The notes below the pieces were generated by a model. That model was not told the DNA's origin and searched no databases. It was given only the letters and a program-made list of their open reading frames with translations. A program made the translations under genes and the position numbers. This document shows, piece by piece, positions 8,970 to 14,381 of a stretch of 64,000 bases of DNA (within the stretch, counting starts at the first letter, position 1; every line of letters starts with the position of its first letter). This DNA comes from Anaerolineae bacterium (GTDB lineage Bacteria; Chloroflexota; Anaerolineae; Aggregatilineales; Phototrophicaceae), in NCBI GenBank assembly GCA_022820125.1, contig JAJEGA010000014.1:18567-82566 (forward strand), in the 5' to 3' direction.

Positions 8970-9112
8970 GCGACCATTCCCTATTCCGCCCATACTCTGG
9001 CGCTACTATACCATGCGCCTGAGAAGCAGACCCGAGCGCCGCATTCCGCGCTTTGCCATCGCAGCGCTTTTCGCTAGACTGACAGAGTCTCCGCCAGTTG
9101 CAGGGCTTGCCC

Positions 9113-9820
9113 ATGCTTGATGAGATGCGCGCGGCTTTTTCTTTTCTGACCATCTTGCCGCTGCGCCCGCAGGCCAAGCGCAAGCCGGGCAAGACCTTGG
9201 CCTGGTTTCCCCTGGTCGGCTTGTGCATCGGCGCGATGCTGGCCGCGGTAGCGCATGTTTCGCCCTTTAACCATGACCTGACCGCCTTCTTCATCCTGCT
9301 CTTATGGGTGGTGGTCACGGGCGGCTTGCACCTGGACGGCTTCGGCGATAGCTGCGATGGCGTCCTGGCGAGCGCCGCGCCCGAAAGACGGCTGAGCATC
9401 ATGCGCGATCCGCGGGTCGGCGCTTGGAGCGCGGTCGGGCTGGTTCTTTTGCTGCTGGGCAAGTGGCTGGCGCTGCGGTCGGTCTCGCCTGAGTGGCTGC
9501 CATTGGCGCCGGTCTTGGGGCGCTGGGCGATGGTCTGGGCGGCATATCATTTTCCCGCCATCCGAGACGAGGGCATGGGCGCGCGTTTTCGCGACGGGCT
9601 GTCAATACGCGAGTTGCTCATCGCATCAGCCTGGGTCGCCATCCTGCTGACGCGCCCGGAAACCGGCGCGCTCTGGCTGTTGACATTCTGCTTCACAGTC
9701 GGTTTCGGTCGCTGGGCGGCGCGGCGTCTCGGCGGCGGACTCAACGGCGATGTTTACGGCGCCATCTGCGAGATGAGCGAGCTGATCTGCCTGCTCTTCA
9801 TCGGCTGCGTTTATGGCTAA
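9113..9820 (+). CDS. cobS: Adenosylcobinamide-GDP ribazoletransferase (cobalamin synthase)
   Basis: FSFLTILPL, GLHLDGFGDSCDG and a polytopic membrane profile. The ATG at 9113 lies inside the TTG-initiated ORF 9098-9820. Confidence 0.8.
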   Translation: MLDEMRAAFSFLTILPLRPQAKRKPGKTLAWFPLVGLCIGAMLAAVAHVSPFNHDLTAFFILLLWVVVTGGLHLDGFGDSCDGVLASAAPERRLSIMRDPRVGAWSAVGLVLLLLGKWLALRSVSPEWLPLAPVLGRWAMVWAAYHFPAIRDEGMGARFRDGLSIRELLIASAWVAILLTRPETGALWLLTFCFTVGFGRWAARRLGGGLNGDVYGAICEMSELICLLFIGCVYG

Positions 9821-10355
9821 GCGGCTGATCTTCCTGCTGGGCGGCGCCCGCAGCGGCAAGAGCCACTATGCCGAATCCTGGGCGCGCGCGCATGGCAATC
9901 GCGTGTTGCTCGTGGCGACGGCGGAAGCAAAAGACGCCGACATGCGCGGGCGCATCGCCGATCACCAAGCCGCCCGTCCGCCGGACTGGCATACCTTGGA
10001 AGCGCCCATCGATACCGCGCGGCAAATCGCGGCAACAGCATTTGAATACGACACCCTCATCCTCGATTGCATCACCCTGATGACGAGCAATATCTTGCTC
10101 AGCCTGCCGGATACGGCGACCCAAAAGGAAGCGAACGACGCGGCGCTCTGCGAAATTGAGCGATTGTTAGCGGCGCAGGCGAAATCGGACGCGACCTGGC
10201 TGGTGGTCAGCAACGAGGTGGGCATGGGCGTCGTTCCGCCGACGCGTTTGGGGAATCTGTATCGCGATATGCTGGGCCGCGCCAATCAGCGCATCGCGGG
10301 GCAAGCGGATGAGGCGCTGCTGCTGGTGGCGGGCATAGCGTGGCGGTTGAAGTGA
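9813..10355 (+). CDS. cobU: Bifunctional adenosylcobinamide kinase / adenosylcobinamide-phosphate guanylyltransferase
   Basis: P-loop LGGARSGKS. The 180-aa size fits, and the start overlaps the cobS stop. Confidence 0.85.
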   Translation: MAKRLIFLLGGARSGKSHYAESWARAHGNRVLLVATAEAKDADMRGRIADHQAARPPDWHTLEAPIDTARQIAATAFEYDTLILDCITLMTSNILLSLPDTATQKEANDAALCEIERLLAAQAKSDATWLVVSNEVGMGVVPPTRLGNLYRDMLGRANQRIAGQADEALLLVAGIAWRLK

Positions 10356-10361
10356 GGGGGT

Positions 10362-11243
10362 TCAGATGTTAGCGAAGAAGTCGGGGTGGACGGTGTACGC
10401 GGGCACCATCTCCTTTGAGACACCGAGCTCCAACTCCGCCAGTTTGTCAATTAACTGCTCGCCATCAATAAGGTCGATTTCTGGCGCTCCATCTCGCGTG
10501 GCTTCGCGTTTTGCTGCGGTCGTGAAATTGCCGGTTGTGACGATGAGCCCCTTGTCGGTTCGCCCCATCATCGCGCCGCGGAAGTCGCGAACGACGCTTG
10601 CCCCAATGGATCCCTTGTAGCGCTTGCATTGAAATAGCACCTTGAATGAGAGGAATCCTCCGATTCGCATAACTCCAATTCCGTCAATACCACCATCTCC
10701 GCTTCGTCCAGTAACCTCGACCTGCGTAAAGCCACTCTCGCGCAAGATTCTTTGAAAAAGCCGTTCAAAGGCAGACGGATCCATCTCCAGCAGCAAATCG
10801 TTGAGATCGGCGCGCCACGCTTCTTCAATTGCCGATTCATCTGTATAAGACAGCATATCGTTTGGATCATCCGAATCTGAATCGCCCGCTCTCTCTTTGG
10901 CCTTCTTTTCTCGCCTTATCTGCTCATTGACTACGCGGTCAACTTCTTTTGGGTCGACTTCGGTTGTCGCTTGACCCCTCCCCGTCAGTGCCCACACGCC
11001 TCTGCTGGAGTTTTCCAACAAACCGTACCGCTTAAGCCAGGTTCGCGCCCACGCTAAATCATATACGATTTTCGTCGGGCTGCTTTGACCGGTTTTGTGT
11101 GGAATGGCAATCTGCTGATCTGTAAGGCCAAGTATTACTACGGCTTTGTCGTGAATCTCATTATTTGACGCCGAACCGCCAAGTTCGTGAAGCGCCTGTA
11201 GAGTAGGATTCAATAGACCGCTTTTTGTCCAGTTCGTTGCCAC
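10362..11243 (-). CDS. mrr: Mrr-type restriction endonuclease (N-terminal winged-helix Mrr_N plus C-terminal Mrr_cat)
   Basis: 293-aa ORF. The C-terminal PD-(D/E)xK variant is intact: GDGGIDGIG ... FQCKRY ... GLIVTTGNFT. Confidence 0.8.
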   Translation of the reverse strand: MATNWTKSGLLNPTLQALHELGGSASNNEIHDKAVVILGLTDQQIAIPHKTGQSSPTKIVYDLAWARTWLKRYGLLENSSRGVWALTGRGQATTEVDPKEVDRVVNEQIRREKKAKERAGDSDSDDPNDMLSYTDESAIEEAWRADLNDLLLEMDPSAFERLFQRILRESGFTQVEVTGRSGDGGIDGIGVMRIGGFLSFKVLFQCKRYKGSIGASVVRDFRGAMMGRTDKGLIVTTGNFTTAAKREATRDGAPEIDLIDGEQLIDKLAELELGVSKEMVPAYTVHPDFFANI

Positions 11244-11284
11244 TTGATTCTCCCGACACTTGCTGACTTTCCACGCACGTAGTG

Positions 11285-11349
11285 CTAGCGATTATACCGC
11301 CCTCCAAACCACGCCTGGTCAATCACCACCCGCTCGACCGTCACCTGCT
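11285..11349 (-). pseudogene. 3' gene remnant of an Mrr_cat paralogue (reads QVTVERVVIDQAWFGGRYNR*)
   Basis: About 46 nt (11304-11349) are nearly identical to 12162-12207, the 3' end of the 190-aa gene. There is no upstream coding continuation. Confidence 0.7.
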
Positions 11350-11427
11350 TCGTCCAAGCACTTGGTCGTCTGGAGGAGATTGTACAATTGTGTTGTCGTC
11401 TTTCAGATTCGCAAAATTAGACAGGAT

Positions 11428-11637
11428 TTACTGGAGGAGATAGATTATCAAAGCGGCCAGCGCGATTTGCGTTCCGATGAACCACTTGATTAATTCGGCT
11501 TTCATTTTATACATATCTGTTCTCAGGTCTGCTTTCAGATCCGCCAAGTCTTCTTTTGTCGCATTGCTCTTGCTGCGCTCTTCCAATGTCGAGAGGCGGC
11601 TCTCGAATCCCAACGAGTCCATATCCGTCACAGCCAT
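11428..11637 (-). CDS. Small coiled-coil protein with C-terminal TM helix (DUF1640-like)
   Basis: 69 aa. LSTLEERSKSNATKEDLADLKADL..ELIKWFIGTQIALAALIIYLLQ. A paralogue lies at 11882-12058. Confidence 0.6.
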   Translation of the reverse strand: MAVTDMDSLGFESRLSTLEERSKSNATKEDLADLKADLRTDMYKMKAELIKWFIGTQIALAALIIYLLQ

Positions 11638-11713
11638 GTCAGATTCTCCTGCCCACCTTGCGCTACGTTACAATTCACACTATATCAAATCCTTAGCATA
11701 CTGTCGAATCACT

Positions 11714-11773
11714 TCACACCCGCTAAACTCTCCCAAACCACGCCCGGTCAATCACCACGCGCTCGACCGTCAC
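11714..11773 (-). pseudogene. Second 3' gene remnant of the Mrr_cat paralogue (reads VTVERVVIDRAWFGRV*)
   Basis: 11733-11773 match 12162-12202 with one or two mismatches. The TCACAC context of the authentic stop is also retained at 11714-11719. Confidence 0.7.
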
Positions 11774-11881
11774 ACAGTCTGGATTCACAGCAATTCAACC
11801 CTGGGGACGGACATACACTTTCTATCGAGCGGAACGCTGGCTTCGTGCGATGCGATTTAGCGGAGGCTCAAAGAAATGGAC

Positions 11882-12058
11882 TTACTGAAGGAGATAGATT
11901 ATCAAGGCAGCCAACGCGATTTGAGTGCCGATAAACCATTTGATCAGATCGGCTTTCAAATTGGACAAGTCTTCTTTAGTCGCTTGACTTGTGCTCCGCT
12001 CTTCCAAAGTGGATAAGCGACTCTCATAATTCAATGCGTCGACTTCAGTCATATTCAT
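11882..12058 (-). CDS. Small coiled-coil/TM protein, paralogue of 11428-11637 (58 aa, below the ORF-track cutoff)
   Basis: Hand translation: MNMTEVDALNYESRLSTLEERSTSQATKEDLSNLKADLIKWFIGTQIALAALIIYLLQ*. The C-terminal 19 residues are identical to the 69-aa paralogue, and there is an 11-codon internal deletion between KADL and KAEL. Confidence 0.6.
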   Translation of the reverse strand: MNMTEVDALNYESRLSTLEERSTSQATKEDLSNLKADLIKWFIGTQIALAALIIYLLQ

Positions 12059-12151
12059 GCCAAGCCCTTAATGTCCGTGTAACTGTTCGTTCCAACGGAC
12101 AGTATACCACAAAAGACATGCGACTGGCGTGACCCGTTCTTGCTAGGAGGC

Positions 12152-12724
12152 TCACACCGCCCCAAACCACGCCCGGTCAATCACCACCCGCTCGACCGTC
12201 ACCTGCTCCGTGCGCAAGCCCAGCTCCAGCTCCTTCAGCTTGCCAATCAACTCCTCGCCATCAATTAGCCGGATCTCCGGCGCGCGGTCGCTGGCCGCCT
12301 TGAGCGCCGCCTCCTGCGTGAAGCCGCCGGTGGTGATCAGCAGCCCTTTATCGGCGCGCCCGACCATGACCCGGCGCCGAAAATCATCGACCTCGGCTGA
12401 GCTGGTGCGCCCGCGCCCGCGGATGCAGCGGAAAGCAACGCGGAAGGTCAAGAAGCCGCCGCCGCCAAAGCTGCCGATGCCCTCAACCGTATCGTTGGCG
12501 CTGCTCAACTCAATCTGCCCCACGCCGTCTTTCTCAAGCAGCTGCAAGATCAGCCGCTGATACGCATCGGCGCTCATCTGCTCCAGCGTATCGGTCACTT
12601 CCTCGCGCCAGCCGGTCAAGCTCTCAATCAATTCCTGCGTGACCGCGCGCGCCTCGCCCGCGTTTTCCGGTGCCAGCGCTGTTGCAACCTCGGTCATCCG
12701 CCTGCCGTCTTCCCCGCTCATCAT
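12152..12724 (-). CDS. Mrr_cat-domain protein with degenerate catalytic motif (no Mrr_N domain)
   Basis: 190 aa. Aligns without gaps to the Mrr C-terminus, but GIDGIG becomes TVEGIG and FQCKRY becomes FRCIRG. Confidence 0.7.
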   Translation of the reverse strand: MMSGEDGRRMTEVATALAPENAGEARAVTQELIESLTGWREEVTDTLEQMSADAYQRLILQLLEKDGVGQIELSSANDTVEGIGSFGGGGFLTFRVAFRCIRGRGRTSSAEVDDFRRRVMVGRADKGLLITTGGFTQEAALKAASDRAPEIRLIDGEELIGKLKELELGLRTEQVTVERVVIDRAWFGAV

Positions 12725-12757: not shown

Positions 12758-13825
12758 TTATGCCCGCGCCAAGCTCGTCACCAGCAAATCCAAAGCCAGC
12801 CGCGGCTCAATTCTGCCCGTTTTCATATCCTGGTCATAACGCTGCAAGCGCTTCAGAATCGCGTCCAATTGCGCCGCGTTGAAACGCCGCGCCTGCGCCG
12901 CCAGCTTGCCAGCCACGAAGGGATGCGCGCCAACTGCTTTGGCAATCGCTTGCCCTTGAGCGGCACCGCCCCGGTCGATGTAGTCGCGCGTCATCGACAG
13001 CATGCGAAACTGGCGCACGATCAAGGCGAACAGCCTGAATCCCGCGTCACTCGGATTATCATGCAGCGACTGATGAATCAATGCCAAGGCGCTCGCGCCA
13101 TCGCCATTCGTCAAGGCATCAACCATTTCGAAGACGTTCGCTTCGGGCACATAGGGCGTCAAGGCGGCGACATCTTCTTCGCCAATCTCGCGCTCGCCAT
13201 CAACATAACAGACGAGCTTGTGCAGTTCATTATCCGCAGCCAGCAGCGCCAGCGCGCGCGCCTGCTTGCCTTCGCGGCGGCGTCTGGCATCCTTTGCACG
13301 GGCGTTTCGGCTATGGACATCGTAGCCGAGCAAATCGCTGATGGCGGCTACAGCTCGAGGGCTGATTTCCGTCCCATAGGACCGCGCGCGCGATCGCAGC
13401 CAATCGCGCAGATGGTCAGGCGCGCTATAATATCGAATGTAACCATTTTCCATCTTTTGCGCTGCTTTCAGCAGCTTGTTGCTGTCTTCCAAGGGCTCCG
13501 TTTCATAGAAGACCAGCCGCGCGAAAGCCGGCAATTTAGGCAGCTCGTCAATCAGCCGATCCGCCGCCGCCTTGCCCACGCGCCCCGCCCCTTTGCGCGT
13601 GATGAAGCCGATTAAGCCCTTGACAATTACAAGCCGTTTCTCCACCAGGAATGGCAGCGACTTAACCGCCGCCAGCACTTCCGCGGCCGACGTCTGCGCG
13701 CCCTCAAACTCGGAGCGGTTCAGGTCGCCTTCTTCGCCCATCGCCTCCCGCATCCGCGCCAAGGCGGCATCGCGGCTGATGCTGTCATCGCCGTGCAGGA
13801 TGTAAAAGGTGGGTGTGGCGCTCAT
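12758..13825 (-). CDS. holA: DNA polymerase III delta subunit
   Basis: 355 aa. The N-terminus FYILHGDD...SLPFLVEKRLVIVKG and the C-terminal helical domain are typical of HolA. Confidence 0.8.
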   Translation of the reverse strand: MSATPTFYILHGDDSISRDAALARMREAMGEEGDLNRSEFEGAQTSAAEVLAAVKSLPFLVEKRLVIVKGLIGFITRKGAGRVGKAAADRLIDELPKLPAFARLVFYETEPLEDSNKLLKAAQKMENGYIRYYSAPDHLRDWLRSRARSYGTEISPRAVAAISDLLGYDVHSRNARAKDARRRREGKQARALALLAADNELHKLVCYVDGEREIGEEDVAALTPYVPEANVFEMVDALTNGDGASALALIHQSLHDNPSDAGFRLFALIVRQFRMLSMTRDYIDRGGAAQGQAIAKAVGAHPFVAGKLAAQARRFNAAQLDAILKRLQRYDQDMKTGRIEPRLALDLLVTSLARA

Positions 13826-13832
13826 GGAGCCG

Positions 13833-14381
13833 CTAATCCTGGCGCGTCACAACGCGATGCAGCGTCACCTGCTGGTCGCCAAAGGGCAAGCGTTTGCTGT
13901 CGCGCGAGACGCTGACCAGCGCCATATCCCCCGGATCGCCCTCGGTTGTGAAGTGTTTCTGCAAGCTCATGCCCAGCGGCGTCGATAGCAAAACGACCGC
14001 CATCATCGCCACCACCATCGTCGGAAAGCGCTCCCAACTTTGGCGCAAGCCGCGCCCGGCGAAACCCAGAAAAGCCACCGCGGCCGCCAGAACGCCGGCC
14101 GTCACCAGATTGGTGCCGCAATTGGGATGAACCGCCAGTTTGCGCTCGCCCGCTTTCATCCGGCTCAAGGCTTCGCTCACAGCGCTCTCGACCTGCTCGG
14201 TCGGCACATCGCCCAGCAGGATGAAGCCGCCGTCGCCGCTGCGCCCGGACAGCTTGTAATTGCGCTGATTGAGAATGTGAATCGTAGCGTGCTCCAAACC
14301 GTGATTGCGCCGGACGCGCAAAATATATGGATGCCGCGTCACCGGTTCGGCATATTCAGCCAGCCGCTCCATCGGGCTCAT
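13833..14381 (-). CDS. Conserved hypothetical membrane protein (HGLEH / HPNCGT motifs)
   Basis: The ORF was trimmed to the Met preceded by AGGAAAGGA. An N-terminal soluble part with NHGLEHATIHIL and AVHPNCGTNL is followed by 2-3 TM helices. I do not recognise the family with certainty. Confidence 0.55.
   Translation of the reverse strand: MSPMERLAEYAEPVTRHPYILRVRRNHGLEHATIHILNQRNYKLSGRSGDGGFILLGDVPTEQVESAVSEALSRMKAGERKLAVHPNCGTNLVTAGVLAAAVAFLGFAGRGLRQSWERFPTMVVAMMAVVLLSTPLGMSLQKHFTTEGDPGDMALVSVSRDSKRLPFGDQQVTLHRVVTRQD

Follow-up and report, generated by a model that had tools for sequence, protein, structure and literature searches.

Does a small gene that repeatedly follows the 3′ end of a nuclease gene work together with that nuclease, or does its position record how it arrived? 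This question is raised by a 64,000-nt stretch of contig JAJEGA010000014.1 from an Anaerolineae bacterium (hereafter, the window), in which a minus-strand block between cobS-cobU (plus strand, 9098-10355) and holA (12758-13825) holds two genes of the Mrr restriction family, two small genes for membrane coiled-coil proteins and two gene remnants. A preliminary description of this block had proposed a two-gene partnership, because each small gene sits immediately downstream of an Mrr_cat 3′ end. Our comparison of the locus across species and strains points the other way: the block is probably the variable part of a genus-wide recombination hotspot with Mrr-type restriction genes, in which the copies of a gene tail would be junction footprints and not the sign of a functional pair.

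Three copies of one gene tail bracket two small-gene cassettes

All six elements that had been described in the block, four open reading frames (ORFs) and two remnants, were recovered in the ORF list and by a repeat search. We use the name cat190 for the 190-aa Mrr_cat gene beside holA. A 50-nt direct repeat occurs in the block in three copies at a spacing of exactly 429 nt (12162-12211, 11733-11782 and 11304-11353), the other two copies being 96% and 82% identical to the reference copy. Its 41-nt heart, which we call the core (GTGACGGTCGAGCGsGTGGTGATTGACCrGGCGTGGTTTGG), varies at one or two positions among the copies and translates to VTVERVVID(R/Q)AWFG, the C-terminus of the 190-aa protein, which confirms the earlier assignment of the two remnants to this gene. 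At core copy 2, homology to copy 1 begins abruptly at GTGACGG. Neither a pattern search of the 4.2-Mb genome that tolerated 3 mismatches nor a search that tolerated 11 found the core at any other site. Each of the two small genes is part of a unit that is collinear with the other over its full length, including the spacer and a TGnTATAnT motif that aligns upstream of the small gene in both, and the window has three tail copies for two such cassettes, an arrangement that we denote n + 1.

The block had been judged by eye to be less GC-rich than cobU and holA, with cat190 as the host-like exception, and windowed GC and GC at third codon positions (GC3) bore out both points. GC is 0.60-0.66 in the flanks but only 0.47-0.52 over approximately 10450-12100, a region at the 1.6th percentile of GC among all 1.7-kb windows of the genome. 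GC3 is 0.55 for the full-length Mrr gene (a low-GC allele, overall GC 0.52), 0.63 for the 69-aa ORF and 0.53 for the 58-aa ORF, compared to 0.83 for cat190 (overall GC 0.65), 0.71 for holA and 0.78 for cobU. The 190-aa gene therefore has the composition of its host, and the remainder of the block is compositionally foreign. The motifs upstream of the two small genes are candidate cassette promoters by their resemblance to consensus elements, and a perfect TATAAT that directly follows core copy 3 is a possible Mrr promoter, which would have been made at the junction.

The stacked units argue for insertion or displacement over local duplication

The preliminary description had explained the two units as a segment of about 430 bp that was duplicated and then diverged. 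Their homology, as [cat190 tail + spacer + small gene], is clear, but a simple local duplication does not survive comparison with other species. The synonymous divergence (dS) between the 58-aa and 69-aa genes is 1.36, compared to a between-species genus median of 1.30, and the two proteins are 78% alike, below their best matches in other species (58-aa gene: G060, G056, G064 and G004, 86-89% at the amino acid level; 69-aa gene: G020, G024, G061 and G068, 86-90%). In species G061, the 69-aa type comes first and the 58-aa type second, the reverse of the order in the window, and unit 2 of the window aligns contiguously, at 79% nucleotide identity, with [cat190 tail - first small gene - remnant] of that species. 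Together, the dS, the best matches in other species and the presence of three tails for two cassettes argue against a recent local tandem duplication.

The non-coding cores match the live cat190 tail at 95-98% of positions. As neutral sequence with the age implied by a dS of 1.36 should be unrecognisable, this near-identity is unlike neutral ageing. Across the 10 genomes with at least two cores, the mean identity of gene tail and remnant is 0.91 within a genome and 0.77 between genomes, which indicates concerted evolution or repeated regeneration of the cores. From core copy 3 to the start of Mrr, the sequence can be aligned without a break to the empty cat190-Mrr junction, from the cat190 end to the start of Mrr, of two loci with the same Mrr allele type (L059 and L077). 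Since there are three cores for two cassettes and the distal core is collinear with an empty junction, the array is better explained by insertion or displacement than by simple tandem duplication.

Other roles for the repeat were considered and rejected. No significant fold was found in the three cores (z-scores -0.7, -2.4 and -0.8), which rules out a structured RNA or terminator there; the sole terminator-like site in the region is at 10392-10407 on the opposite strand. An integron reading, with the repeats as attC sites, is ruled out because the repeats are the cat190 tail, lack a significant hairpin and come with no integrase. Neither the ORF list nor a Pfam scan showed a recombinase ORF between holA and cobU. 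Where the small gene abuts cobU (G010, G013 and others), no duplication of the cobU tail was found.

The same layout recurs at rluD and lepA

In the same genome but outside the window (C76:68440-68990), an 83-aa member of the small-protein family is convergent to rluD and abuts its stop codon, with a perfect 25-nt copy of the rluD tail on the far side of the small gene. Of 30 species compared at rluD (L084-L113), 17 carry a family member and 11 of those also a tail copy; at least five species have clean empty sites, and one (G076) has two cassettes with three tails. In the occupied loci that we inspected, the distal copy still has the original TAG, followed by the native sequence that is found downstream at empty sites, and the live rluD has a different tail, with a TGA, that abuts the small gene. 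Both genes show the arrangement expected of displacement: the distal remnant at rluD and at cat190 is the old end joined to its native downstream sequence, and at rluD the live gene also carries a replacement end.

A third case is lepA in genus g78 (L141/L183, corresponding to G262:C6:1113089-1114686, and L184-L203), in which the 3′ end is copied once or twice downstream over 51-140 nt. These copies bracket a family member, a pair that we read as a RelB/YafQ-type toxin-antitoxin (TA) module, or both. The order of the cassettes is swapped between species of g78, and G262 has n + 1 tails. Because the same layout of n cassettes with n + 1 tails is found at rluD and lepA, we interpret the cat190 tail beside each small gene as a footprint of arrival. 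Both rluD and lepA are housekeeping genes, and the partnership that had been proposed from the constant position of the small gene behind an Mrr_cat 3′ end is not supported on this point.

Exact 25-46-nt copies of 3′ tails also lie 0.3-1.3 kb downstream of other genes of this genome (Table 1). The small inserts that they bracket, named by sequence reading, include a 79-aa coiled-coil protein with an N-terminal transmembrane (TM) segment, an 84-aa TM protein, a Phd-like and NYN-like pair, Uma2-like nucleases, and a VapC with a pentapeptide-repeat protein. Around other family members of the genome (C112, C32, C64, C85, C125 and others), no tail duplications were found.

Table 1. Features of the block in the window, and sites of tail copies elsewhere in the same genome.
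Feature	Position	Strand	Basis or remark
cat190, stand-alone Mrr_cat protein, 190 aa	12152-12724	minus	ORF and Pfam
Core copy 1, last 14 cat190 codons (VTVERVVIDRAWFG), functional gene tail	12162-12202	minus	
Extended -10-like element TGgTATACT, candidate cassette 1 promoter	12101-12109	minus	upstream of 58-aa gene; sequence reading
Cassette 1 gene, 58-aa tail-anchored coiled-coil protein	11882-12058	minus	ORF; family hidden Markov model (HMM), 4e-28
Core copy 2, non-coding cat190-tail remnant between cassettes	11733-11773	minus	40/41 nt as copy 1
Sigma-70-like match TCGACA-17-TATAGT with TG, upstream of 69-aa gene	11679-11707	minus	consensus only, 10/12 + TG
Cassette 2 gene, 69-aa allele of the cassette 1 protein with an 11-residue (hendecad) coiled-coil insertion	11428-11637	minus	ORF
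Core copy 3, most distal cat190-tail remnant	11304-11344	minus	40/41 nt as copy 1
Perfect TATAAT right after core copy 3	11291-11296	minus	about 48 nt upstream of Mrr start codon
Full-length Mrr, type IV modification-dependent restriction endonuclease by family, 293 aa	10362-11243	minus	Pfam and PADLOC
Tail-copy sites at other genes, own genome	C80:64134-64626, C31:2788-3207, C4:14547-15969, C41:67516-68381, C62:44727-45596, C29:20837-22113		

The segment between fixed borders turns over between species and strains

We fetched and mapped the locus in 60 species of the genus, and our counts of its states cover 61 loci. The holA-cat190 border is fixed in the mapped loci, as is cobU-cobS on the other side in most of them. 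The content between these borders varies widely and includes zero to three full-length Mrr genes, duplicated Mrr_N pieces, insertion sequence (IS) elements, a 12-kb metabolic insert, and zero, one or two small genes. The small gene was present as one intact copy in 24 loci, as two intact copies in 2 (the window and G061) and only in broken form in 6, and was absent from the remaining 29. We found an intact Mrr gene with no small gene in 21 of the 61 loci, and an intact small gene with no full Mrr in the fetched part in 4. In each of the 45 loci that have both borders, the GC of the variable segment is approximately 0.50, compared to 0.62-0.65 in the flanks; low GC is therefore a property of a genus-wide exchangeable segment and not of a recent arrival.

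Pairwise identities between species show the same separation of segment and flanks. The identity of cat190 follows that of holA (Spearman coefficient 0.53), in comparison to coefficients of 0.02 for the Mrr catalytic domain and 0.14 for the small gene against holA, and -0.20 for the small gene against cat190. The species closest to the window by holA (G061, 84%) has an Mrr catalytic domain that is merely 56% identical, and species with a holA identity of 70% reach 85%. The variable segment evolves independently of its flanks.

Comparison of closely related strains showed that array content varies between conspecific assemblies as well. Three types were seen among assemblies whose flanks are 97-100% identical to those of the window. 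The first has the array as in the window, with an apparently frameshifted Mrr in one assembly; the second has both cassettes but lacks the third core, has another Mrr N-terminal domain and places the 69-aa gene 22 nt from Mrr; and the third has a 5′-truncated first cassette, then the 69-aa gene and an Mrr N-terminal domain that is different again. In four of these assemblies (L156/L160, 4130-4609, and L159/L161, 3716-4343, versus 10636-11243 of the window), the Mrr N-terminal domain differs between flanks that are 97% identical, and the catalytic half of Mrr is still 91-93% identical to that of the window. From these differences in array and N-terminal domain we conclude that the locus is remodelled within the species and that the Mrr recognition domain is swapped.

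Individual loci illustrate the range of insertions and losses. In G044, about 3.5 kb that replace Mrr (L042:1727-5227) contain an oppositely oriented ORF for a 1166-aa P-loop protein whose N-terminus appears nuclease-like by eye, and gaps similar to this one in L043 and L053 bring to three the species in which Mrr is replaced. The small gene of G017 (L035:1815-4797) is interrupted by a 2.6-kb insertion with an ORF for a putative IS1595-type transposase. In G020 (L045:1761-14106), cat190 and the small gene are separated by 12 kb of metabolic and ABC-transporter genes, a block with the cat190 tail on one side and a second copy of the core, at 13958, on the other. The apparently frameshifted Mrr (L154:4316-5196, in an assembly 98% identical to the window) is called as ORFs of 224 and 69 aa, and reflects either a frameshift or an assembly error.

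cat190 and the full-length Mrr

The cat190 protein matches Pfam Mrr_cat (5.2e-14, 52.8 bits), has no Mrr_N domain, and scores just under the cut-off of 27 bits for NA-iREase1 (9e-06, 26.0 bits). An orthologue is present in 64 of the 68 genomes of the genus. All 61 orthologues compared have F[RK]C[ILVM]RG where the full-length Mrr has FQCKR[YW], together with an xxDxIEG-like motif, and retain an E or D at the second acidic position. The lysine of the catalytic Q/E-x-K that is expected of an active Mrr_cat nuclease is missing from every one of them; as F[RK]C[ILVM]RG takes the place of Q-x-K throughout, we conclude that the catalytic lysine has been lost. The view of this gene as a degenerate Mrr_cat paralogue thus holds: cat190 is almost certainly a conserved, non-catalytic protein with a nuclease fold and host-like composition.

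The full-length Mrr, in contrast, is a typical representative of a known family. The 293-aa ORF exceeds the cut-offs for both domains, Mrr_N (1.7e-16, 60.6 bits; cut-off 29.5) and Mrr_cat (1.2e-31, 109.6 bits; cut-off 21), and is recognised by PADLOC as mREase_IV (7e-27, over residues 8-290) and by PDC-S02 (2e-31). Its GDGGIDG and FQCKRY motifs are intact, with the PD-(D/E)XK residues (D ... Q/E-x-K) in place, and all 42 full-length homologues in the genus keep GDGGIDG and FQCKR[YW]. By sequence, its sole solved relative is MspJI (E 0.008). Judging by its family, the protein is probably an ordinary modification-dependent restriction enzyme.

A family of small tail-anchored coiled-coil proteins

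The small proteins consist of an N-terminal helix (..RLS.LEERS..(Q/N)ATKEDL..LKADL), an optional insertion of 7 or 11 residues that gives rise to length classes of 56/58, 65 and 69 aa, and a near-invariant hydrophobic C-terminus, IKWFIGTQIALAALIIYLLQ. In the 58-aa protein, the N-terminal helix contains the beta-layer-type motif QATKED, and the C-terminal sequence forms a TM segment. ATK and D are (near-)invariant in two family alignments, and the TM segment closes the protein. The ratio dN/dS is 0.11 for the family overall and 0.03 in the TM segment, a degree of purifying selection that identifies the small gene as real and strongly constrained. AlphaFold2 models the 69-aa protein as one continuous helix over residues 3-68, with pLDDT (predicted local distance difference test) values of 84-92 in the C-terminal 30 residues.

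The earlier label of these genes as DUF1640-like is justified at the level of motifs, since the proteins have A-T-K-[polar]-[D/E], then a coiled coil, then a C-terminal TM helix, but Pfam scores stay below the curated cut-offs. For CCDC90-like (former DUF1640, PF07798), the 69-aa ORF scores 17.3 bits (E 0.0045; gathering threshold 33.5) and the 58-aa ORF has no match to this family in a Pfam scan; XhlA haemolysin (PF10779) also falls short at 16.7 bits (E 0.0084; gathering threshold 34.7). Weak matches were seen in PHROG to phage proteins of unassigned function and to "hemolysin" (XhlA; E 0.0037), and the top matches of the family profile in the PDB are an ATKED-repeat protein (6H9L, E 0.0015) and Tcar0761 (5APZ, E 0.08). 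Neither small ORF matches a PADLOC-DB 2.0 family at E values up to 1, and no NCBIfam match was found, so these two libraries give no sign of a known defence system that contains the small protein. The ATK-x-D beta-layer motif has been described for DUF3782, the coiled-coil stalk of a PD-(D/E)XK endonuclease family, and for DUF1640, whose members are membrane proteins (Hartmann et al. 2016, eLife, PMC4786415). By analogy, the small protein may form a trimeric tail-anchored stalk, and our best guess at its role is that of accessory cargo, a membrane-anchored trimeric stalk that would act at the membrane in conflicts with phages or mobile DNA.

The family HMM finds approximately 16 members at 13 loci in the genome of the window, and among 172 sampled Chloroflexota genera the family occurs in 4, two of which have 9-18 copies per genome. 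The genome of the window also has four paralogous genes that fuse N6_N4_Mtase to Mrr_cat (C112:40790-42728, C32:31335-35673, C38:14008-16183 and C33:27303-28961). Two of these are followed by family members of 65 or 71 aa, on C32 with two genes between, one of them XRE/ImmA-like; of the other two, one is followed by an unrelated 71-aa coiled-coil ORF with an N-terminal TM segment and one has no small gene. At C64:558-4500, a Type ISP gene is split into a coupler/methylase part of 612 aa and a Type_ISP_C specificity part of 370 aa by about 1 kb that holds two tandem family members (75 and 102 aa); we looked for a flanking duplication at this split and detected none.

Arrival footprint, functional pair or mobile element

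On the reading that we favour, cat190 beside holA would be the fixed left border of the hotspot and cobU its right border, and the low-GC DNA between them would be exchanged among species and strains. The full-length Mrr would read modified DNA with its N-terminal winged-helix domain and cut it with its PD-(D/E)XK domain (D...QxK), and each cassette of about 430 bp comprises a promoter-like element and a gene for a small tail-anchored coiled-coil protein. An incoming [gene tail + small gene] would be anchored by homology in the conserved gene and push the resident tail downstream, which amounts to C-terminal displacement. The simplest routes would be homology-facilitated illegitimate recombination (HFIR) or Campbell-type re-integration of popped-out circles, with gene conversion afterwards keeping the tail copies alike. 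Several points weigh against this reading. Its recombination mechanism is read from the anatomy of the loci, and many of the same observations would also suit an ancient array that underwent differential loss and gene conversion. Gene-tail duplication across the genome is enriched only about twofold (19 of 3991 gene ends, versus 7-13 for internal control windows), and flanking repeats around 49 family members in other genera were found in 8 cases, mostly tandem paralogues, versus 21 of 300 random sites, which is not a general signal above the control, with the lepA locus L141 as the lone clear case. In addition, the family is enriched beside restriction-type genes in the genome of the window, where 7 of its 16 members (5 of 13 loci) adjoin such genes, and in many species only 22-35 nt separate the end of the small gene from the start of Mrr, a spacing compatible with co-transcription and a functional link.

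These last observations suit a two-gene defence module, in which an Mrr_cat protein (cat190 as a sensor, or the full Mrr) would act with the membrane protein as anchor, regulator or membrane-damaging effector, and the unit would have been duplicated through joint selection. The restriction neighbours comprise Mrr_cat-containing genes at three places (the Mrr locus on C53 and the N6_N4_Mtase-Mrr_cat fusions on C112 and C32), a pair of HSDR_N proteins (C76) and the split Type ISP gene (C64). In 10 of 15 related loci, which are mutually related and non-independent, the gene after the methylase-Mrr_cat fusion belongs to a 71-aa subfamily; ATKxD coiled coils are fused to PD-(D/E)XK nucleases in DUF3782 (PMC4786415); and there are the weak matches to XhlA and to phage small membrane protein families. 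Against such a module stand the 21 loci with Mrr and no small gene and the 4 with the reverse, the tail-bracketed family members at rluD and lepA, and the roughly 9 of 16 members of the genome that lie in unrelated contexts, such as sufC-sufB and transporters. No co-variation was seen between small-gene type and Mrr N-domain type, and PADLOC has no model for the small proteins. In other genera, a hand count among the matches listed gave at least about 5 pairs of small gene and Mrr_cat within 5 kb, against about 1.5 expected, which is weak evidence for co-localisation beyond the genus. A specific partnership of Mrr and membrane protein is therefore weakly supported at best, and we regard the two-gene module as quite improbable. 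Also unlikely, in our judgement, is an old in-situ tandem duplication of [cat190 tail + small gene] in the genus ancestor, with differential loss and gene conversion from the live tail. It would account for the collinearity of the units throughout, for a dS at the between-species level (which fits an event that predates the radiation of the genus) and for the concerted evolution of cores within genomes of many species, but it predicts n tails for n cassettes, whereas the window, G076 at rluD and G262 at lepA show n + 1, with the distal tail joined to native downstream sequence. The reversal of cassette order between the genome of the window (G000) and its closest sampled relative (G061), the departure of small-gene similarity from the phylogeny of the flanks, and the differences in array content between conspecific assemblies also speak against it.

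An autonomous or trans-mobilised mini-element that targets and restores gene 3′ ends, through a recombinase acting in trans on an att site in the gene tail, in the manner of elements that integrate into icd or tRNA genes, or through a mechanism that makes long target duplications, appears unlikely. Such an element would explain why three unrelated targets (cat190, rluD and lepA) in two genera share one architecture, with presence/absence polymorphism, arrays and shuffled order, and would accommodate TA pairs as alternative cargo as well as the other tail-bracketed inserts of the genome with Phd-, VapC- and Uma2-like genes (names by reading) and a small membrane coiled-coil gene. However, no recombinase is encoded in the cassettes or consistently beside them, the length of the duplicated tail varies at a given target (41 to about 160 nt at cat190, 20-44 nt at rluD), and there is neither a shared site motif nor an orientation rule, as the small gene points the same way as cat190 but is convergent with rluD and lepA. 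The lack of a significant hairpin in the core and the modest genome-wide enrichment of tail duplications likewise count against it. We raise, as a tentative and still doubtful possibility, that these are undescribed integrase-less cassettes of 0.37-0.76 kb with coiled-coil or TA cargo, which would insert at the 3′ ends of conserved genes with a replacement tail, stack with n + 1 tails, shuffle their order and turn over between strains. If so, they would be a functional analogue of an integron array that uses the tail of the host gene itself as the recombination site.

Implications

Taken as a recombination hotspot, the locus offers a view of how a defence hotspot is built up in an uncultured lineage, from a dead-nuclease anchor, exchangeable restriction alleles, swapped recognition domains and stacked small cargo genes. 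It suggests that, where gene-tail remnants are repeated beside small genes, recombination scars should be the first reading, ahead of any partnership concluded from adjacency. The recurrence at rluD and lepA, with TA cargo, may point to a general route, possibly a new one, by which Chloroflexota acquire genes with no need of a dedicated recombinase, and the analysis highlights a family of tiny coiled-coil membrane proteins that is strongly conserved and expanded in this lineage.

Relation to known systems

Like E. coli Mrr and other type IV enzymes, the 293-aa protein has both domains at full length with the GDGGIDG and QCK motifs; unlike E. coli Mrr, its gene lies in a hypervariable hotspot, has an N-terminal recognition domain that is swapped between strains, and is paired with a conserved dead paralogue. 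That paralogue resembles the inactive restriction-endonuclease domains of the NACHT-associated type (NA-iREase1) in combining an Mrr_cat fold signature with the absence of Q-x-K, but cat190 is a stand-alone protein of 190 aa with no NTPase fusion, and its score lies barely below the curated cut-off. A dead paralogue together with a hotspot is a known kind of arrangement. The small proteins share with DUF1640/CCDC90-like proteins and DUF3782 an N-terminal coiled coil, a stalk that opens with [aliphatic or Q/N]-A-T-K-[polar]-[D/E], and a TM helix at the C-terminus, and differ in their length of only 56-69 aa, sub-threshold Pfam score and confinement to a lineage; for them, the trimer and beta-layers are predictions from this likeness.

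The cassettes also recall integrative elements and integron cassettes. The elements e14 and phage 21 restore the 3′ end of icd when they integrate into it, and partial tRNA repeats flank tycheposon or cargo arrays. As in these elements, the 3′ end of the target is duplicated here, the gene stays intact, the old end persists as a remnant, and tandem arrays have n + 1 repeats; in contrast to them, there is no integrase, the inserts are only 370-760 bp long, and a single target can have duplicated tails of different lengths. With integron cassettes they share arrays of small promoter-proximal single-gene or TA cassettes that vary in number and order, whereas the repeats are tails of the neighbouring gene that differ by locus rather than attC hairpins (with no GTTRRRY box and no significant fold), and no IntI gene is present in the locus.

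C-terminal displacement and arrays of orphan modules are known from rhs, contact-dependent inhibition of growth (CDI) and type VI secretion system (T6SS) effector-immunity loci, for which HFIR has been proposed (Kirchberger et al. 2017, PMC5361080, and Jackson et al. 2009, cited therein). There, and on our reading at cat190 too, a conserved gene serves as the homology anchor, [3′ end + small gene] displaces the old end, which is kept as a remnant, and arrays accumulate and differ between strains. The present arrays differ in that the displaced tails span a mere 14-54 codons and are almost the same in sequence, unlike polymorphic toxin tips, in that a dead nuclease, rluD and lepA act as host genes, and in that the cargo is a small membrane coiled coil or a TA pair rather than an immunity gene matched to the tail. 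On our best reading, C-terminal displacement with orphan arrays (PMC5361080) is the closest described model for these cassettes, and their stacking between gene tails, which recurs at unrelated genes, represents a new form of such an array with small membrane proteins as cargo.

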